26,716 nucleotides of DNA from an uncultured Nitrososphaerota archaeon (GCA_964636085.1 CAZWPQ010000012.1:15001-41716); one strand, 5' to 3'; shown: positions 7,580 through 17,912, numbered from the stretch's first letter. Numbers and translations are program-made. The notes: a model not told the origin generated them from the sequence alone.

Positions 7580-7837
7580 ATGGCGATAATTCCCGTAAAG
7601 ATAGATTCGAGTACTGTGAAGCTTATAGATGCTCTCGTCGATTTGGGGATTTTTCGGAGTAGAAATGACGCTATTAGGAGTATGATTGTCAATGGTCTCA
7701 AAACATTTTATCAGCGAGTATTTGACGAAGAAATTATAGAGGTGGCAAAAAAACTGCTGGAGATCAAAGAGCCAATAATGATAGTTTCCACAAAAGAAGC
7801 ATGGGAAATTGTGGCTGAGGAGCGTGATAGGTTTTGA
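7580..7837 (+). CDS. vapB: Ribbon-helix-helix (CopG-like) antitoxin, VapB-type
   Basis: IIPVKID...LIDALVDLGIFRSRNDAIR RHH pattern and EIVAEERDR tail. Stop overlaps the PIN gene start (TTGA). Confidence 0.85.
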   Translation: MAIIPVKIDSSTVKLIDALVDLGIFRSRNDAIRSMIVNGLKTFYQRVFDEEIIEVAKKLLEIKEPIMIVSTKEAWEIVAEERDRF

Positions 7838-8379
7838 GTACAATTTATCTTGATACTTCGGTACTAATAGCAAGTCTTAAACCTAAAGACAAAGACCATA
7901 TTTGTGCTAGGAAGATTCTTGATTCAGGATTAACCAAAAAGATATCATATATAACGGTTACCGAGATGATATCTGTAGTATCCAGACTAATTCAAGCGTG
8001 CCAGATCCAACTAAGTGATGAGGCAAGGGAGTTGTTGGATCCCCTCAGTTTTGACAAAAAGATTAAAGCGATAGTGCTTTACATTATTTTGAGGTACAAT
8101 ATTAATGTCATAGGTTGTCTCGGGGTTGTCCATTCTGGGATTGATCGTGTGGAGCTACCAATCGAGTTTGCTGAAGCAATAAAAATCGCTCCAAAAACTA
8201 GGCTTAAGACGCTTGATAATCTTCATATCGCTACGTTCAAACTTAACAAGAAACCTGAGTGCTTAGATTTCCTAGTAACTGGGGACAGGGATATGCTTAA
8301 CAAAGCTGCCGAGATTAGAGAAATAATAGAAACATTAATACTCTCTCCTGAAGAAGCCAGTAAGAAACTGGTTGTATGA
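7834..8379 (+). CDS. vapC: PIN-domain toxin, VapC-type
   Basis: IYLDTSVL, TVTE, LKTLDNLHIA and LVTGDRD carry the acidic PIN active-site residues. Confidence 0.9.
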   Translation: MSTIYLDTSVLIASLKPKDKDHICARKILDSGLTKKISYITVTEMISVVSRLIQACQIQLSDEARELLDPLSFDKKIKAIVLYIILRYNINVIGCLGVVHSGIDRVELPIEFAEAIKIAPKTRLKTLDNLHIATFKLNKKPECLDFLVTGDRDMLNKAAEIREIIETLILSPEEASKKLVV

Positions 8380-8599
8380 AGTCTAGACTGCTTAGATTTC
8401 TTCCTTTTATGGATTACTAGCCGAATTGTATTTATCAGAGTTTTGACTATTTAAGGGTCAAATAGATATAATGTTGGATAGGATGTAGTCGCTTCATATG
8501 ACTCTTAGATAAAAATAAATGTTGCCAACTATGTTTATGTTTGGAAAGTTTTGGTGACCCAGCACGTCCTAAGGGGTTTTGTCGTAATAGTTACTAGCG

Positions 8600-9697
8600 G
8601 TGGCGATATTGTGGGAATATGGGGGGGAGAAGATCGTGCGGATATTAGAGGCTCTTAGAAAGGGTATAGGTGAGTTGGTTCGAGAATTTGTAAACCTTCC
8701 TCTAGATGAATTCATTGAAATATATTGGAGGCTAGAACCAATCGATATCGAACTTCTGTGTCCCTATAATTCGGCTCTCTTTCCTGTAGAGCCTATAAAG
8801 GAATATAGACTTGATATTCCTAGCGATGCGTTGTCCATAGAGTCAGATATATTGTTGGGGATTTTGAAGGAGAGAGGTTTTTGTGTTGGTTCTATAGACT
8901 CAGGAACATTTATATCGGGCCCGCATCTACTTGTGAATATAGTATTTGTAAATGTGGGGTATTGGTACCTAAATCATGAGAGCGGCTCGGGGGGTAGTGG
9001 TAACTATGCAGAAATGTTTTCATATGCCGGGGAAGGAGAGAGGCCCCAGTTAAAAATAAAGGATGCTGAGATGGTGGCTATAGAGAAGCTGGTAGACAAA
9101 ATGGATGGCAAGCTTAACTTTCTATTTATGGATGAATCTCTGAGCTTGGCATATACGATGTCTTGGAATTCCGAAGATCGTGAAAAAATGGTAAAAAAGA
9201 TATGCGGAATTCTAAATAGTGTGATGGAGAGAGGTGTTATTCCTCTAGGTATATACTACACGCGTGCAGCAGATATCGGCAGAGGTATACTCGCCATGAA
9301 GGGGAAAGAACTACCAATCCTCTCCGATAGAATCCTAATGAATAGAGTCTTAGGTGATGGGGCGCGATCTCCACTTTTTAAGGTTAACTCAAGAGCTCTG
9401 GCTAATAAGTTAAGACTACTAGCATTCTATCTAAAAGTATCTGAAAGGAATGTACTAAGGGTTGAATTCCCAGAATCTATGAGGAGATATGTCGATGACA
9501 TACACCTAGCAGTACTCTCCCACTCGGTATTAGGGGGAGGCTATCCACTAGCATTACAAAGGGCCCATGACCTAGCAGTTATAGGGGGAAGAGAAAGGGA
9601 GGTGATAATTGAGATGTTAAAAAACATGTTAAATCTTCCTAGCGACGAGTATATATATTCTAAAAAATGGATATCGAAGAGGTGTCCAATAATATGA
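8600..9697 (+). CDS. nurA: NurA 5'-3' nuclease
   Basis: VGSIDSG, LFMDESL, RVEFP and GGYPLALQRAHDLA (NurA GYP...AH motif). Adjacent to herA/mre11/rad50. Confidence 0.85.
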   Translation: MAILWEYGGEKIVRILEALRKGIGELVREFVNLPLDEFIEIYWRLEPIDIELLCPYNSALFPVEPIKEYRLDIPSDALSIESDILLGILKERGFCVGSIDSGTFISGPHLLVNIVFVNVGYWYLNHESGSGGSGNYAEMFSYAGEGERPQLKIKDAEMVAIEKLVDKMDGKLNFLFMDESLSLAYTMSWNSEDREKMVKKICGILNSVMERGVIPLGIYYTRAADIGRGILAMKGKELPILSDRILMNRVLGDGARSPLFKVNSRALANKLRLLAFYLKVSERNVLRVEFPESMRRYVDDIHLAVLSHSVLGGGYPLALQRAHDLAVIGGREREVIIEMLKNMLNLPSDEYIYSKKWISKRCPII

Positions 9698-10323
9698 CGT
9701 CTTGGGGAAAGTTGTTTGTAGATAAGAGCAAAGCAGTGGGGGAAGTAGCCGGCGTTGAGGCCGGAAAAATAGAGGTTTTTGTATATCCAGAATACTATCC
9801 AAGAGTCAGAGTGGGATCCGTATTGGCTATAGATTCTGAAGGCAGTAAACCAGTCGGCATCGTGATAAAGCTTGCACACACGGCTCGTCATGCGGGTATA
9901 GTTCCCCTAAGAAAAACAAGGCAAGAGATTAGAAATGCATATCCTGACATAGAAAGATACTATAGGTATGTGTCGACGATAGCATATACGAGTAATATAA
10001 CCAGTGGCAATATAGTCCATGTAAGGACATCCATGCCCAGACTTCATGATTTAGTCTATATAATAGGCTCTAATGATCTTCTCGACGCCTTTTTCAAGCC
10101 AGATGGCGAGTGGAATTTTGATTTTCTAAGGTACTACATAGCAGAGGGGGCCAGCATATTAGAGATAAGAGAGTTCTTCTATACGTACAAAGAATACTTC
10201 CAAGATTATAGAGATGATAAAGAGGAGGTAATATCGAAATTGGTAAGGGTTCTGCTGAGATCCGGCGTATCAAATGTGGCACTCTACATTGAGGAAATAA
10301 TCAATATGTTGGGGTGGGGGTGA
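9694..10323 (+). CDS. Standalone HAS-barrel domain protein
   Basis: VGEV...RVGSVLAI...VGIV...PRLHDLVY HAS-barrel pattern with a helical C-terminal extension and no ATPase motifs. ATG 9694 overlaps the nurA stop (ATGA) and follows a GAGGTG RBS, so it is preferred to 9667. Confidence 0.75.
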   Translation: MTSWGKLFVDKSKAVGEVAGVEAGKIEVFVYPEYYPRVRVGSVLAIDSEGSKPVGIVIKLAHTARHAGIVPLRKTRQEIRNAYPDIERYYRYVSTIAYTSNITSGNIVHVRTSMPRLHDLVYIIGSNDLLDAFFKPDGEWNFDFLRYYIAEGASILEIREFFYTYKEYFQDYRDDKEEVISKLVRVLLRSGVSNVALYIEEIINMLGWG

Positions 10324-10330
10324 CTTAAGG

Positions 10331-12070
10331 ATGCAGAGAAGAATACTGGGGAGAGTAATCTCAGGGAGCGTTAATACTGGAGTTAGTGTGCTTGTTGAGA
10401 AGGGAGAAGTAATAGAGGATTTTCCGCTGGGATCCATAGTGACAATAAATGGTAAGAAACATAAATACCTTGCAATGATAACGAATTCGGGCCTAGATGT
10501 CTCTGAATCCTATGTTGCAAGCCTCATGGGTTCTGATATTCCTAAAAGAATAAGGGATATAACAGTGGAGGCAAGTCGGGACAACATTAGCTCAAAATGG
10601 ATAGAGCTAGCATTGGTCGCTCAGTCACGAGGGGGAGAAACAAAAATAGCTGATACCTTTCCAAGTTTTTACTCAGAGATCGTAGAGACAAGTGAGGAAG
10701 AGATAAGACACTTCTATGGTTACGAGGATAGGAGAGTAAAGTGGAACATAGGAGTACCCAAGACACCTAGGGCGATAAGTGTTGAGGTACCACTAGATGT
10801 CGAAAAACTTATCGAATTGAGTTTTGGTATCTTTGGTAAATCGGGAACTGGCAAGACATTTCTCGGGAATATAATTGCAGGCTACATACTGCTATATGAT
10901 ATGCAGAAAAGCAGGGCATCTCCCTATTCCAAGAGGATAAGAATGCTTATATTCGACATGCACTCTGAATATGGTCTCGAACTAAGAGACAACATGGGGA
11001 ATCCCATAGCGGACGGTGTAGGGAAAATATTTTCAACAATGTTCAAGAGATATACTCCCGATGTAGAATTAGCTAGGACTAGGGGACTACATGAGTTAAG
11101 GATTAACTATAATGAACTTACAATAGAAGACCTCAGACTGATATGTCCAATACTCGGGATAACGCCTACTTTTGTCGCTCATCTATCAGACTATGAAAAA
11201 TACCTTAGGAAACTTCTGGGAGATTATTGGGTTTGGGGTCTCATCATTGATGAGTATATATCTAAAAAACTTCAAAGAACGGAGGAAGGAAGAAAAATCC
11301 TAATGGAAATTCAGCAAAGAACGAGGAAAAATGATTTTAGTGCTCTGAGAAATGAGATATTATCTGGCATCAAGAGTATTGGTGTAGCACTATATACGTC
11401 TTTTGTCTCGCAGACATCAAAACTAAAAGTCTTAGCGGATTATCCATATACCTCGGGCAAGAGCGCCATAGATGACATCGTGGAAAACCTTGTCTCTAGG
11501 GACGGATTAAACATAATCATAAGTCTCGGTAAATATGAGAAGGAGACGCCCCTATATATGATCATTGCTAACCTGATTGCTAGGAGACTAAGGGAGAAAA
11601 TACTGGAAAAAAGCATGCGTGGTGAAGAAATAGAGACGAAAATAGTTATATTTCTAGAGGAAGCCCATAATTTCCTCGGTAAGGAGACATATAGACAGTC
11701 ACCGTTCGGGGCAATAGCAAGGGAAATGAGAAAGAAGGGAGTCATGCTATGTGTGATAGACCAAAAACCAAGTGAACTGGATAGGGACGTTGTAAGTATG
11801 CTCTGGACAAACTTTGTATTCACATTAACTGACAGGAACGATATAGATGCGGCATTGCTAGGTATTCCTCGGCCAGACTTATTTAGAAAAGTCGTTCCAG
11901 TAATGGGCCGAAGGGAAGTACTTATATTTGGCGAGGCAATAAATTTTCCCGTTGTTATACTGGTGAAAGACTATCGTGCTGTGGCTGAATATTTTAAGGA
12001 GATTACAGGAGAGGTAGAGAGAGATATAGACAGGAGGGAGAGTCTGGCGAGGGCCGATGGCTTTATTTAG
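10331..12070 (+). CDS. herA: HerA/FtsK-family DNA translocase/helicase
   Basis: N-terminal HAS barrel (LGRVISGS...PLGSIVTI). Walker A GKSGTGKT, LIFDMHSEYG, Walker B IFLEEAH, IAREMRK, DQKPSEL. Confidence 0.93.
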   Translation: MQRRILGRVISGSVNTGVSVLVEKGEVIEDFPLGSIVTINGKKHKYLAMITNSGLDVSESYVASLMGSDIPKRIRDITVEASRDNISSKWIELALVAQSRGGETKIADTFPSFYSEIVETSEEEIRHFYGYEDRRVKWNIGVPKTPRAISVEVPLDVEKLIELSFGIFGKSGTGKTFLGNIIAGYILLYDMQKSRASPYSKRIRMLIFDMHSEYGLELRDNMGNPIADGVGKIFSTMFKRYTPDVELARTRGLHELRINYNELTIEDLRLICPILGITPTFVAHLSDYEKYLRKLLGDYWVWGLIIDEYISKKLQRTEEGRKILMEIQQRTRKNDFSALRNEILSGIKSIGVALYTSFVSQTSKLKVLADYPYTSGKSAIDDIVENLVSRDGLNIIISLGKYEKETPLYMIIANLIARRLREKILEKSMRGEEIETKIVIFLEEAHNFLGKETYRQSPFGAIAREMRKKGVMLCVIDQKPSELDRDVVSMLWTNFVFTLTDRNDIDAALLGIPRPDLFRKVVPVMGRREVLIFGEAINFPVVILVKDYRAVAEYFKEITGEVERDIDRRESLARADGFI

Positions 12071-13271
12071 ATCTCTAAAAATTGTCCATACGGCCGATTT
12101 CCATCTCGGCAACAGATTTGTTGGTCTAGAGGGCAATAAAGTTGAAGAAATACGGAGAGAGGACATGTATAGAAACCTAGACATAATAGCTAATTACTGT
12201 ATTAGGAATCACATCGACCTCGTGCTGATATCTGGCGATATTTTCCATAGAAGTAACCCAAACCCTAGAGACTTTGTCAGATTCTCTAGCTTTATCGGTA
12301 AGCTTACGGGCAATGGGACATATGTAGTGATTATAGCTGGGAATCATGATAAGCCCAAGATATCAGGCGCAAAAAATCCGCTGGAAGGACTAGTCGAGGC
12401 GGGAGTGCCTAGACTTTATTATTTTCAGCAAGTCCCAAATGAACCATTGATCCTAAGGATTAAGGATAAATTCATTGGAATAGCACCAATACCATACATA
12501 GACCCAACAGTCCTAAAAGCATATGATATACAGATGAGCTATGAGAAATACATGGAGAAATGGATAACATACTTTAGGGATAAGATGTCCGAACTAAACC
12601 TGGACTTTAGAATACTTATGGCACATGTCATGCTTAGGGAAGCAGATCTAACAAAAATACCATCCCTATATGCCGAGGAGCCAAAAATTGGGTATGGCTC
12701 GCTTCACGAAGATTCCTTCGATTATGTAGCTCTAGGCCACGTGCACAAGCCCCAGCAAATTGGTAGAAGAACATATTACTGTGGGTCAATAGAGCGTATG
12801 GCTTTCGATGAGGAAAATGAAAAGAAGGGATTCTATTATCTAGAACTGACAGGTGATGGTGTGCATTCAGAGTTAGTGGAGTTGCCATGCAGACCTATGG
12901 TCACAAGGAAATTAAAGATAGAGTCCATGTCAAGGGATGAGATCATAAATACTTTCAGGAGAATGCAGGATATTCCAAAAAACTGTATTTTGAGGCTTAT
13001 CATAGAAGCAGATAGAGAAATGTGGTCCCTAATAGATGAGCTTAGGGTACGTATTCGTGATATATTACTTACGGGGCTTGGTGTTCTGGGATATTCACTA
13101 AGGAGATCCATAATTGATATACATACCCCAATAAACATAGAGCTGGACACAGAATTTAGTATTAGGAAGAGGGTATTAGAGTACATAGAATCGTTCAAAG
13201 TTGATCCCGAACTCAAGATACGCGCTAAAGAACTCGCCATAAGCATTATGGATGAGGTAATGCTAAGATGA
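12057..13271 (+). CDS. mre11: Mre11/SbcD nuclease
   Basis: Phosphoesterase motifs HTADFHLG, GDIFH, AGNHD, MAH, DYVALGHVH and YCGSIER. Directly upstream of rad50. Confidence 0.92.
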   Translation: MALFRSLKIVHTADFHLGNRFVGLEGNKVEEIRREDMYRNLDIIANYCIRNHIDLVLISGDIFHRSNPNPRDFVRFSSFIGKLTGNGTYVVIIAGNHDKPKISGAKNPLEGLVEAGVPRLYYFQQVPNEPLILRIKDKFIGIAPIPYIDPTVLKAYDIQMSYEKYMEKWITYFRDKMSELNLDFRILMAHVMLREADLTKIPSLYAEEPKIGYGSLHEDSFDYVALGHVHKPQQIGRRTYYCGSIERMAFDEENEKKGFYYLELTGDGVHSELVELPCRPMVTRKLKIESMSRDEIINTFRRMQDIPKNCILRLIIEADREMWSLIDELRVRIRDILLTGLGVLGYSLRRSIIDIHTPINIELDTEFSIRKRVLEYIESFKVDPELKIRAKELAISIMDEVMLR

Positions 13272-15637
13272 AATTGGTGAAGCTAAAAATTGAGAATATA
13301 GCGACATATGAGAAACAAGAAATAGATTTCTCCTCATTGAGATTCCCAGTGTTTGTAACTGGTAAGACTGGGTCAGGTAAAACAACATTATTTGTCGATG
13401 CGATCACGGCTGCGCTCTACGGCAAGGCATATAACGTTGCCAAGCAAGGATTTTACAAAGAACTCATAATGAAGGGAAAGGAATATGGGAGGATCGTGCT
13501 TAGGTTTTATATGAGTGGATGTGAGTATGAGATCTCGAGGACTTTTTATAGGGACTCCTCAAAAAGCCCAACAGTATTTTTGAAGGTGATAGAGAACGGG
13601 GAGGAAAGAGTTGAAACATATAGAAAACAAACAGTAGAGCAGAGAATTTTAAAGATGATAGGGGCGGACTATAATACACTACTAAATTCAGCCATAGTTA
13701 GGCAAGGAGATGTATACCAATTCGTCGAAATGACAGGTGCCAAGCGTAGAGAGCTCTTAATAAATATCTTTAGAATAAGTCTAGACAATCTTAAAGAGGT
13801 TGCCAGGAATAGGCTGAATAAGGTATCTGGAGAGCACCAGAGAATTAGTGGTAGGATTGAGGAAATTGAAAAAATTGTTGCAGATGAGAAAAAATATAGG
13901 GAGGATTTGGAGCACCTAAGGAATGAAAAACCAACTATAATTGCAAAGCTTAATGATCTCAAAAACCAAAAGAGGATTTTGGAAGAAAAACTAGAACAAG
14001 TAAACAATCGATATGGCGAACTCCGACAAAAATTGGAGACGATTCTAGAGTTTGAGCGACAACTACTGGATAAGAAAAGGAAGAGAGAGGAGATAATGAA
14101 AAGCGTCATAGAAATTGAGAAGAAAATGGAGAAATATTCAATCGAAAAAATAGCGTTGGCGGATAGATTTGAAAAAAGCTTGAATGACTATAAGGTAAAG
14201 AAAGAGGGATTGTCAAGGATGAAGAACGAGCTTGAGAGACTTCAGCAATTGCTTGAAAAAAAGAAAAAACTTGAGCAGAAATTACTGGATTATAAAAAAT
14301 TGGAGCACGTAGACGAGCAACTAGCAGAATTAAGGGATCGGAAAGGCGATATAGAGAGGCAGATTGGTGCGCTTCAGTCAAGCATAGAGTCCATAAATGA
14401 TGCCCTGAATAAACTCAAAACCAGTGGTGCAAGATGCCCTGTTTGTGGTTCTGAGTTATCTGAAATGAAAAAACATGAGCGAGAGATTCATCTAAAGCGA
14501 GAGATGGAGCAGCATAAAAAGATGCTCATGGAAAAGAAGTACGAGTTGGCGGAGATAAATAATAGACTTAAAGAGCTAGAAGCCCTATCAAAGAAGAAGC
14601 AAAAACTCGATGGCGAGATTTGTAGACTGCGCGAAGATTTACGTGGTGTCCACATAGACGAAGAACTGGTACGGGAAAAGGAGACAAAGATAAGTGAGGT
14701 TGAGAGTGCAATAAATGCTATTTTGGAAGACATAGCAAGATATACCAATACTAGGGAAATCGGTGAGGCCGAGGCTAGGATAAGAGAGATGCGAAAATTA
14801 AAGGAAAGAATTCCAGAGCTTAAGGAAAAGAAGAGAATCATAAATGAACTAGATGGAGAGATCGAAAGTCTTTCCAAGAAAGTATCCGCCAAAGTCGAGA
14901 TCGAGAAAAATATAGCACAAATAGAGCTAGAGAGGACAAAACTAAGAAATCAGCTGAGCGAAATAAATAAGGAGATATCGAATCTAGAACAGCGTCTAGG
15001 AAAAATCGATGAACGCATATCCTTACTAGAACAGAAGCTAAGTGAAATAGAAGCACTAAAAAAGGATCTTAAAGAATTGAAGAAGAAAAAACAAGAATTA
15101 GAGCTCGACGAGCGTGCCTACGAGTTCCTTATAAAACATATTTTTAGCCAGGGAGCTCTACCCGCCAAATTGCTTGAAGAATATCTACAGTATATTGAAA
15201 ATGATGCAAATGACTACTTGGCAAAATTTGGCCAAGATATAAGGATAAGGTTGATAATTAGGAAAATTAGGGACACGCAAACAGTTGATATAAAGGCATA
15301 TGCTAATGGATATGAAAGGCCTATTGAGACATTTAGTGGTGGAGAAAGAACACTGATAGGGTTCGCAGTTAGGCTCGCCATAGGTAGACTTCTCGCCCGG
15401 ATAAGCTCAATAAAGGAAAAACCAAGATTTTTGATAATTGACGAGGGCTTTGGCCCACTGGATGAGGAATGCAGACATGCCGTAGCAGAAGCCCTATCTA
15501 GGTTGTATGAATCCAGCGAATATGAGCAGATAATTGTGATATCACACCAGCAGGACCTAAAATATCATCCAATATTCAAAACAATAATAGAGGTAGTAAA
15601 AACAGATAACGGCATAAGCAGGGTATTTATAAGATAG
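13268..15637 (+). CDS. rad50: Rad50/SbcC SMC-like ATPase
   Basis: Walker A GKTGSGKTT, Q-loop VRQGD, long coiled coils with central CPVC zinc hook (14435-14446), signature FSGGE, Walker B/D-loop IIDEGFGPLD, H-loop VISH. Confidence 0.93.
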   Translation: MKLVKLKIENIATYEKQEIDFSSLRFPVFVTGKTGSGKTTLFVDAITAALYGKAYNVAKQGFYKELIMKGKEYGRIVLRFYMSGCEYEISRTFYRDSSKSPTVFLKVIENGEERVETYRKQTVEQRILKMIGADYNTLLNSAIVRQGDVYQFVEMTGAKRRELLINIFRISLDNLKEVARNRLNKVSGEHQRISGRIEEIEKIVADEKKYREDLEHLRNEKPTIIAKLNDLKNQKRILEEKLEQVNNRYGELRQKLETILEFERQLLDKKRKREEIMKSVIEIEKKMEKYSIEKIALADRFEKSLNDYKVKKEGLSRMKNELERLQQLLEKKKKLEQKLLDYKKLEHVDEQLAELRDRKGDIERQIGALQSSIESINDALNKLKTSGARCPVCGSELSEMKKHEREIHLKREMEQHKKMLMEKKYELAEINNRLKELEALSKKKQKLDGEICRLREDLRGVHIDEELVREKETKISEVESAINAILEDIARYTNTREIGEAEARIREMRKLKERIPELKEKKRIINELDGEIESLSKKVSAKVEIEKNIAQIELERTKLRNQLSEINKEISNLEQRLGKIDERISLLEQKLSEIEALKKDLKELKKKKQELELDERAYEFLIKHIFSQGALPAKLLEEYLQYIENDANDYLAKFGQDIRIRLIIRKIRDTQTVDIKAYANGYERPIETFSGGERTLIGFAVRLAIGRLLARISSIKEKPRFLIIDEGFGPLDEECRHAVAEALSRLYESSEYEQIIVISHQQDLKYHPIFKTIIEVVKTDNGISRVFIR

Positions 15638-15641
15638 GGAG

Positions 15642-16067
15642 ATGGGTTTGAGAATCCAAGAGGGGGAACTACAAGAAGTCATAGAGGAAGCAAAAAGAAT
15701 AGCCAATAATTGCTATTCTCCCTACTCCAAGATTCGTGTAGTGGCATGCCTAGTATGCGATGAGGGAAAATTCTGGGGTGTAAATGTTGAGAATGCATCA
15801 TATGGACTAACGATATGTGCGGAAAGATCTGCAATCGCTAGCGCTATATCAAATGGCGCCAAAAAATTTTTGTGGATGCTGATATATTCTCCTGACATAA
15901 TCCCCATACCCTGCGGAGCATGCAGACAAGTCATAGCAGAATTCGTAGATGGTGATTTTCCAATAATAGTGGCTACTGGCAAAGAAAAAATCTCAATATA
16001 CAAGTACAGGCTGATCGAATTATTCCCCCACAGCTTTTGTATCCAGAAAAACCATAGACATGTATAG
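15642..16067 (+). CDS. cdd: Homotetrameric-type cytidine deaminase
   Basis: YSPYS, GVNVENASYGLTICAERSA and PCGACRQ zinc motifs. Starts 4 nt after the rad50 stop. Confidence 0.93.
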   Translation: MGLRIQEGELQEVIEEAKRIANNCYSPYSKIRVVACLVCDEGKFWGVNVENASYGLTICAERSAIASAISNGAKKFLWMLIYSPDIIPIPCGACRQVIAEFVDGDFPIIVATGKEKISIYKYRLIELFPHSFCIQKNHRHV

Positions 16068-16175
16068 ATTTCCATGATGCTGATACATATTTGGATATTA
16101 CTTTGTTTAAAAAATGGGTGATGTAGATTTTTTAATAGCCTAGACTATCATCAAGGTAGAGAGTGATGATACCCA

Positions 16176-17744
16176 TTGATGACTAGTCCAGCTCGTGTCT
16201 CCATAAGGGCGATATCCATATATCTTGTTGTTTTGACATCAATGGTTATAGGCGGTATACTATCTGGTCTATCCATAACTGCGCTTATCTGTCTTATCAT
16301 ATTTACTTTGTGCATATTTCTAATAGCAACAGAAATGCTAATTAGGTCTACTGCAGCTTTATTTGGTGCATTTCTTGTTCTAATCGTATTCGTTATAGCG
16401 GGTAGTTATACCCCCTCAGAAATTGTTCATTCATATGTGGAGGTAGATACAATACTTACGTTATTTGGAATAATCATCGTTGCGTCATTAGGCTTAAAAA
16501 GTGGGTTGTTTTATTTTATAGGAATGAAGATAGCGAAAGCTTCAAAGGGGGATCCAATAGTCCTGTATTTTACATTGGCACTATTCACATTTGTATTAAA
16601 CATAATCCTTATCACTGTTGCCGCCATTGTCGTTGTTGTGTCCCTAACATTGGCCATATGCGATATATTAAAAATAGATCCTAGGCCCTATGTAATTATG
16701 GAGATATTCATTGCGAATGTTTCATCTCCGGCAGTCATGATATCATCTGTCCCCAACATTGTAATAGCAGAGAAGGCACCATTATCATACTCATTCTTTA
16801 TAGTCAATCTACTGCCATTCTCAATAATATTTTTTCCCATCAGCATATGGATGCTATATTCCTTATTCCAACCACCAACTGTTGTGGATTTAAGGCGTGC
16901 AATGGCGATCCAAGAAATAGACGAGTGGCTTTTTGTCAAAAATAAGAAGGAATTCTATGTCTCTGGATTATGTATCACTGGGCTAATCGTGGGATTTATT
17001 GTTTGGAGAGAACTAATGGTTATATCGATCCTTTTTGCTGTTATTTCCATGATATTCTATTCGAATCCTGATGCATTACTACATGACGTTGACTGGGACA
17101 CGTTAATATTTTTTGTTGGGTTCTATATCGTTGTTGCAGGCCTATCGCTAACCGGGATTCTAGACAGTATTGCGGATGGGCTCCTAAGAGTGTCTAGAGG
17201 CAACATATATACGCTGATAACATTACTCTTTTGGATCTCTGTAATATTGAGTGGATTTGTAGACAATATCCCCTATGTGCTCGTAATAATACCAATAATA
17301 AAGATACTGGTCTCTACGTCATCATTTGCGCAATTCGAGAGTATTTTATGGATATCCTTAATACTAGCATGCAATATTGGCGGGGGCTTAAACCCCTATG
17401 CATCTCCACAAAACCTACTAGCCCTATCCATGGCTAAGAGGGCGAAGTATCCAATAATGTCTAGGGACTTCTATAAGGTAAGCATAAAATGGACGATTAT
17501 TGGCAGTATATTGGCCTATATTTATCTGATGGTATTCCTAATTACTCCAATTGCGATGTCACGAATAGGTCCAGCAAAGTACATATTATTATTGACGACA
17601 TCCATCGCAATAACTACGATCATATGTCTCCATAAGGCAGTCGGATTAAGAAGGTCTTGGAGGTATCTAAGAGTTGCTATTTCTACACTATCAGTGTCAG
17701 TAAGGAGACTCAAACGGAAACTTTTGGCCTCTGTATCTAGATAA
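16176..17744 (+). CDS. ArsB/NhaD/P-protein (ion transporter superfamily) membrane transporter, paralog A
   Basis: Many hydrophobic segments. TILTLFGIII, DPRPY...E, VDWDTLIFFVGFY, SGFVDNIPY, CNIGGG...QN. Confidence 0.85.
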   Translation: MMTSPARVSIRAISIYLVVLTSMVIGGILSGLSITALICLIIFTLCIFLIATEMLIRSTAALFGAFLVLIVFVIAGSYTPSEIVHSYVEVDTILTLFGIIIVASLGLKSGLFYFIGMKIAKASKGDPIVLYFTLALFTFVLNIILITVAAIVVVVSLTLAICDILKIDPRPYVIMEIFIANVSSPAVMISSVPNIVIAEKAPLSYSFFIVNLLPFSIIFFPISIWMLYSLFQPPTVVDLRRAMAIQEIDEWLFVKNKKEFYVSGLCITGLIVGFIVWRELMVISILFAVISMIFYSNPDALLHDVDWDTLIFFVGFYIVVAGLSLTGILDSIADGLLRVSRGNIYTLITLLFWISVILSGFVDNIPYVLVIIPIIKILVSTSSFAQFESILWISLILACNIGGGLNPYASPQNLLALSMAKRAKYPIMSRDFYKVSIKWTIIGSILAYIYLMVFLITPIAMSRIGPAKYILLLTTSIAITTIICLHKAVGLRRSWRYLRVAISTLSVSVRRLKRKLLASVSR

Positions 17745-17912
17745 GAATATTAAAGGAGTATTCAACGCTGTAGCGACCCCTGACTGTTGTATATGTTGTT
17801 AGTTTTAAGATTCGCATATATTTCCTTTTTTAATGGATGTGTTTCTATTTACGACACTTTGGAATACTGTTCATAATACCCCCTGGGACCATCTGCACCA
17901 TAGACGAGATGT

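Follow-up and report, generated by a model that had tools for sequence, protein, structure and literature searches.

A free-standing copy of the HerA domain that holds the NurA nuclease is encoded, as a conserved fifth gene, in the DNA end-resection cluster of the Asgard archaeal order Njordarchaeales and of several other Asgard families. The stretch of DNA in which we describe it (26,716 nt; G000:C12:15001-41716; hereafter the window, meaning the full stretch) is part of an 83% complete assembly, G000, which judging from the source names of close homologues probably represents an Asgard archaeon of the Njordarchaeales. Six co-directional open reading frames (ORFs) on the + strand of the window (8600-16067) correspond to nurA, a small HAS-barrel gene, herA, mre11, rad50 and cdd (Table 1). 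The enzymes and the pathway are already known, and the finding is incremental. Among known prokaryotes the Asgard archaea are the closest relatives of eukaryotes, and reconstituting their end resection from four proteins could leave out a subunit. We consider it fairly probable that the cluster is the main break end-processing operon of the organism and that the small protein functions in it as a stoichiometric accessory subunit on HerA's barrel face.

The small protein has no Pfam or NCBIfam match that reaches threshold. Its score against the Pfam HAS-barrel family (PF09378) is 14.1 bits, below the gathering cut-off of 25.2, and weak matches to PF09378 occur in 10 of 31 members of the small-protein family (best E 6e-5). 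The AF2 model (pLDDT 87.5) comprises a beta-barrel that has a helical insertion, and after it a helix bundle; in a Foldseek search with this model HerA N-termini ranked first, including that of the T. kodakarensis HerA-NurA structure 9x1m (E 3e-7). HerA chains also headed the VIA structure search (Z 10.3, with an rmsd of 2.1 over 105 residues, then 8.6 and 8.2), the barrels of F1/V1 ATPases ranking after them. Moreover, an hhalign comparison of the 31 family members with 12 adjacent HerAs aligned residues 13-178 of the small protein with residues 4-175 of HerA, up to the Walker A loop (95.6%, E 1e-8). By all three approaches the small protein has a HAS-barrel fold homologous to HerA N-termini; that is, it is a paralogue of the N-terminal region of HerA in which a helical tail replaces the ATPase domain. 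Two residues, E17 and H118, are invariant across the family, and the aligned positions of the window HerA hold other residues. A split herA was ruled out, because HerA keeps a complete barrel of its own. The proposal of an initial annotation of the window, that a free-standing HAS-barrel gene exists there besides the barrel of HerA, is borne out by the models and by hhalign. In a literature search neither a free-standing HAS-barrel protein nor a five-gene cluster was found described, and we know of no published function for this family, which databases catalogue as a domain of unknown function.

Of 400 Asgard genomes searched with a profile of the small protein, 17 gave strong matches, distributed over at least seven family-level groups, and the 135 genomes of the largest Asgard family sampled gave none; a further copy, in G004, is truncated where the contig ends. 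Across a range of arrangements, the small gene is positioned directly 5′ of herA. The order seen in the window (G000), nurA-small gene-herA-mre11-rad50, recurs in G006, G013, G020 and G083 and, judged by spacing, in G008. Two genomes (G009 and G012) have nurA-small gene-herA with mre11-rad50 either 12 kb off or on another contig, and in another two (G010 and G042, both with a partial herA) the same three genes run up to the contig end. The small gene is followed by herA, with no adjoining nurA found, in G001, G004 (where the small gene is partial at the contig edge) and G170. Finally, the cluster reads small gene-herA-mre11-rad50-nurA in G159, mre11-rad50-nurA-small gene-herA in G160 and small gene-herA-mre11 in G305. 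The adjacency is therefore kept when nurA follows rad50 (L068) and when mre11 leads the cluster (L070), and the flanking genes vary by genome (saccharopine dehydrogenase, DHHA1, Sir2, DUF790 and NfeD). Since the pair persists across varied arrangements and flanks, the small gene and herA form the conserved core, which nurA usually precedes and mre11-rad50 often follows. Furthermore, 12 complete pairs were measured, window included, and in every one the two genes either overlap or are separated by no more than 7 nt, so that their coupling exceeds chance. The copy in G083 (L067:9410-9943; G083:C17:21412-21945) contains one in-frame TAG in an otherwise intact nurA-small gene-herA-mre11-rad50 cluster, which could reflect a sequencing error, a pseudogene or recoding. 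In G002, to which we return below, the genes are found at L017:3719-6496 and L160:7059-10135, nurA and the small gene standing beside a convergent DUF790 gene.

In a tree of HerA sequences, those adjacent to the small gene are split between two clades, among which HerAs without it are interspersed, and the idea of a discrete HerA subfamily matched one to one with the small gene was accordingly dropped. The small-protein tree recovers the major groups of the HerA tree (Njordarchaeales; G159/G170/G305/G160; G013 near bacterial sequences), with moderate support values in a comparison that is not a formal test. Because both trees share these groups, the pattern fits a long co-divergence of the two proteins. 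The gap in HerA profile scores (521 versus 351 bits) is partly circular, since the profile was built from HerAs adjacent to the small gene.

All five core genes are intact, and the enzymes have their motifs. The nurA product scores 35.2 bits against the Pfam NurA model (cut-off 21), of which only the C-terminal part is matched, and it matches no solved NurA structure by sequence. It has the conserved acidic and histidine residues of a NurA domain: among 11 orthologues D100, D178 and H323 never vary and E157 is a glutamate in nine, and the four may constitute the D-E-D-H catalytic set. HerA (DUF87, 69 bits) combines an N-terminal HAS barrel with a RecA-like ATPase bearing Walker A (169-176) and Walker B, with D209 and with EEAH at 443. 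In its AF2 model (pLDDT 90.6), which matches S. solfataricus HerA 4d2i (Foldseek E 9e-25), the N-terminal barrel has the same topology as the small protein, helical insertion included. Both HerA and NurA fall far under the canonical equivalog scores of NCBIfam (50 bits versus cut-offs of 800-970). Mre11 scores best with the SbcD subfamily (TIGR00619, 97.5 bits versus a cut-off of 77.65) and carries the phosphoesterase motifs DxH at 14, GDxxH at 60, GNHD at 95 and GHVH at 227. Rad50 matches the AAA_23, SMC_N, SbcC Walker B and Rad50 zinc-hook families, with its P-loop at 31-39, the zinc-hook CPVC at 390, the signature motif SGGE at 690 and Walker B at 721.

The genes are closely packed. The junctions are an ATGA overlap between nurA and the small gene (9694-9697), a 7-nt gap before herA, a 14-nt overlap of herA with mre11, a second ATGA between mre11 and rad50 (13268-13271) and a 4-nt gap before cdd. 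Judged by the N-termini of orthologues, the small gene starts at the ATG at 9694 and not at 9667, and the GTG start of nurA at 8600 agrees with its orthologues. The number and identities of the six genes and all their junctions are as first annotated, confirmed by ORFs, family matches and motifs. The gap upstream of nurA, with a single TATA-like word at 8512, is a probable promoter region. On the + strand no run of six or more T occurs in 7801-16127, and hence none inside the cluster; the T6 that follows, 61 nt past the cdd stop, is the sole such run in 7801-16400. As no oligo-T run precedes 16128, the arrangement fits a single transcript across the cluster.

Table 1. Features of the end-processing cluster in the window (all on the + strand)
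Feature	Position	Strand	Remarks
Probable promoter region, 5′ of nurA	8380..8599	+	220-nt gap after PIN-domain gene; A/T-rich box ~8512
nurA, divergent NurA nuclease	8600..9697	+	365 aa, GTG start
Small HerA N-terminal paralogue: HAS barrel with helical insertion and helical tail, without ATPase domain	9694..10323	+	209 aa
herA, full-length HerA translocase with its own HAS barrel	10331..12070	+	579 aa
mre11 (SbcD/Mre11 nuclease)	12057..13271	+	404 aa
rad50 (SMC-like ATPase with zinc hook)	13268..15637	+	789 aa
cdd, tetrameric-type cytidine deaminase, passenger in the operon in G000 only	15642..16067	+	141 aa
First oligo-T run 3′ of the cluster, candidate transcription stop	16128..16133	+	T6

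The G000 assembly contains one Mre11, the copy at this locus being the sole match, and one Rad50; a second AAA_23 match belongs to a 1076-aa ORF that is a putative SMC. There are three more NurA-HerA pairs (C1:117396-119611, C71:990-3076 and C4:53963-56102) and HerA paralogues without NurA (C7:61804-62541 and C28:8017-8697), and none of these other loci has the small gene or Mre11-Rad50. Because the assembly holds no second mre11 or rad50, and hence no second canonical herA-mre11-rad50-nurA set such as had been envisaged, the locus is the main double-strand-break repair locus of the organism and not a defence module. Therefore, of the two roles initially offered for it, main repair system or module acting on foreign DNA, only the former stands. 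The defence module was also rejected on the PADLOC result, which at the locus consisted only of partial, generic HerA and SMC-like matches, with no effector gene.

The last gene of the cluster is an ordinary pyrimidine-salvage gene, a local passenger outside the conserved unit. Its product belongs to the tetrameric cytidine deaminases (TIGR01354, 121.8 bits versus a cut-off of 113.65), with the motifs CAE at 59 and PCxxC at 90. Homologues are present in nine relatives of the order (G001, G003 and G005-G011); they lie on a contig other than that of rad50 in G001, G005, G006, G008, G009, G010 and G011 and elsewhere in the genome in G003 and G007, and cdd was found inside none of the related clusters. 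Thus, of the two genes said to be embedded with the four core genes, the HAS gene is kept beside them in relatives and cdd is not, and cdd was rejected as a component of the machine, since its adjacency to rad50 is not conserved. In G000 it is probably co-transcribed with the cluster, as it begins 4 nt past the rad50 stop with no oligo-T run between. Directly after rad50, relatives have a DHHA1-domain (RecJ/NrnA-like) gene or a Sir2-family gene (L015:3481-4446, L018:16107-16754), so that different genes take the place of cdd across lineages.

Relatives of the small protein extend beyond the Asgard archaea. A profile search of the full library returned only 34 representative clusters, all of ~200-220 aa, the divergent ones including Baldrarchaeia and a Hecatellales archaeon, and a broader profile returned 712 proteins, many from Dependentiae/TM6 bacteria; in one source a family member bears the name HerA-ATP synthase barrel domain protein. 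Homology between the Asgard and Dependentiae branches spans the whole chain (hhalign 94.3%, E 1e-7). The distinct five-component machine of the initial annotation is accordingly upheld in that the unit recurs in other Asgard families, and not upheld as something unique to the lineage, since the small-protein family reaches bacteria. On the Dependentiae-type contigs the small gene overlaps the end of an upstream ORF of ~220-270 aa (10 of 10 loci inspected), which proved to be rnhB, for RNase HII, in all four loci tested. A divergent ORF of ~225 aa is also found upstream, LexA-like (S24 peptidase plus HTH) in the one tested. The bacterial loci comprise L096:5505-7591 and about 40 others (L072-L151), all on metagenome contigs, and their gene context, though mostly without herA, has a flavour of DNA repair. 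One bacterial locus has a herA 4 kb downstream, whose product shares 29% identity with the window HerA along its entire length and groups in the tree with the Asgard HerAs linked to the small gene. Finally, look-alikes of ~200 aa in a protein atlas, from Chloroflexota and Cyanobacteria, carry Pfam HAS-barrel and DUF8166 (TM 0.77 over 191 residues), and it is through these atlas clusters alone that the small protein may be linked to DUF8166 (PF26500).

What the small protein may do follows from what is known of the barrel. The HAS barrel is the NurA-binding part of HerA, its deletion abolishing the complex in S. solfataricus (PMC3326311), and in D. radiodurans six HerA barrels form a ~28 Å pore and make the NurA interface (PMC9960219). 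The small protein duplicates this docking domain as a free-standing chain, is encoded next to herA and apparently co-diverges with it, and it most likely acts at the HerA-NurA interface. By analogy with known systems, Mre11-Rad50 would recognise and open the DNA end, a HerA hexamer would thread duplex DNA to a NurA dimer docked on the HAS-barrel ring, and NurA would digest the DNA so fed. At HerA's barrel face the small protein would then contribute a further barrel ring, or mix into one, and so mediate or tune the docking of NurA. That is, we infer that it binds there, forms a ring, affects NurA and is co-transcribed with its partners.

A number of observations weigh against this reading. In G002, a genome of the same genus and the sole exception to the small gene-herA adjacency, the contig with nurA and the small gene is not the one that carries herA-mre11-rad50. 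Related Asgard clusters exist without the small gene, namely nurA-herA-mre11-rad50 in G098 and mre11-rad50-nurA-herA in G036, and in G024 herA-mre11-rad50 stands behind a 402-aa ORF of unassigned family. The HerA and NurA linked to Mre11-Rad50 are by family score the least canonical of the G000 paralogues, the HerAs of C7 and C28 outscoring the linked one on canonical HerA models, and with 83% of the genome assembled a second Mre11-Rad50 may have been missed. Furthermore, herA occurs within 7 kb of the bacterial small gene in only 1 of 43 loci, and a search for fused forms of the small protein found none, which is weak evidence. The G098 order bears on another point as well: a leading nurA, at first taken to be unusual, is present in Asgard genomes that lack the small gene and is common in the phylum.

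Several other explanations can be set beside that of an accessory subunit. The small protein might be a decoy or assembly regulator, its free barrels competing for the flat face of NurA and keeping the nuclease inactive until a DNA-loaded HerA displaces them. It does copy exactly the NurA-binding part of HerA, and at most loci its gene is flanked by nurA and herA, while in G002 it stays with nurA, not herA. However, L068, L069 and L071 pair the small gene with herA, nurA being separated from it by mre11-rad50 where seen, and the small-protein tree follows the HerA groups, which makes this possibility rather unlikely in our view. The bacterial loci could suggest instead a general DNA-repair factor, for example a ring or platform for several nucleases, with the adjacency to herA as one context only: the genes of full-length Dependentiae homologues overlap the end of rnhB and have a divergent LexA-like gene as neighbour, and 42 of 43 loci lack a herA in the vicinity. 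On the other hand, the synteny with rnhB was seen in a single group of related bacteria, which may have inherited the gene order, and since one bacterial locus does carry a related HerA, grouping with the Asgard HerAs linked to the small gene, the bacterial partner may be simply unlinked; we regard a general factor of this kind as unlikely. A bolder version, in which the small protein makes a DNA-encircling ring of its own and serves nucleases at large as a docking platform, receiving NurA in Asgard archaea and in some bacteria and RNase HII in Dependentiae, strikes us as a long shot. If true, the platform would be an unrecognised class of repair scaffold common to both domains and exchanged together with its HerA.

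The two remaining explanations concern the limits of the unit. A six-component machine, in which the cytidine deaminase helps to process DNA ends or to act on foreign DNA, is suggested by the short, oligo-T-free spacing of cdd after rad50 and is very improbable, given that cdd lies apart from rad50 in the nine relatives and in none of the related clusters, that it scores as an ordinary tetrameric enzyme, and that generic HerA and SMC matches are all that the PADLOC defence models give. The small gene might also be a decaying, functionless remnant of a partial tandem duplication of herA, as its homology to the 5′ part of the neighbouring herA and the in-frame TAG of the G083 copy would allow. 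This is barely credible for an ORF of ~200-220 aa that is intact across Asgard families diverged to ~20% identity, with the invariant E17 and H118, a confident predicted fold, a helical tail of its own and homologues in bacteria.

The cluster with its barrel subunit can be compared with several described systems. The known orders of the archaeal cluster are herA-mre11-rad50-nurA (Sulfolobales and P. furiosus) and nurA-rad50-mre11-herA (T. kodakarensis and T. barophilus), and a 2026 review gives four-gene orders only, describing the Asgard NurA-HerA system as wholly uncharacterised (PMC13748450). Like the archaeal herA-mre11-rad50-nurA cluster, the window has the four enzyme families clustered, tightly coupled and with intact motifs, but it differs in the conserved fifth gene between nurA and herA and is thus not a four-gene cluster; it also differs in having nurA first, low-scoring HerA and NurA, an SbcD-type Mre11 and a short Rad50. 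The HerA itself resembles canonical HerA in its HAS barrel, RecA-like core and helical domain, the model matching 4d2i. In the NurA-HerA structures of D. radiodurans (7f6d; PMC9960219) and T. kodakarensis (9x1l/9x1m) a NurA dimer docks on the ring made by HerA's HAS barrels; these consist of two components, and the small-protein model matches their HerA N-termini, whereas in the window the docking domain is also present as a free copy on a separate gene, and we know of no structure or assay that has included a protein of this kind. The bacterial proteins of ~200 aa named "Helicase HerA barrel domain-containing protein" (PF09378, PF26500; Chloroflexota, Cyanobacteria, Dependentiae/TM6) share the length and the predicted whole-chain fold, but the archaeal branch has no Pfam match at threshold and is embedded in an Mre11-Rad50 cluster, and the Dependentiae branch follows rnhB. 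Finally, the HerA anti-phage systems (Sir2-HerA/Nezha, DUF4297-HerA and TdpAB) have HerA hexamers with an effector at the barrel face and gave good structural matches to both models; the window, however, has no Sir2, DUF4297 or TdpB-like effector, and the partners of its HerA are NurA, Mre11 and Rad50, so that the locus is not a member of this group.

The neighbourhood of the cluster in the window is as follows. A gene for a 181-aa PIN-domain protein (7834-8379) lies on the same strand 220 nt 5′ of nurA, and tblastn with this protein against nine related loci gave no match. After the cluster, two tandem genes encode CitMHS-family transporters of 522 aa each (16176-19481).

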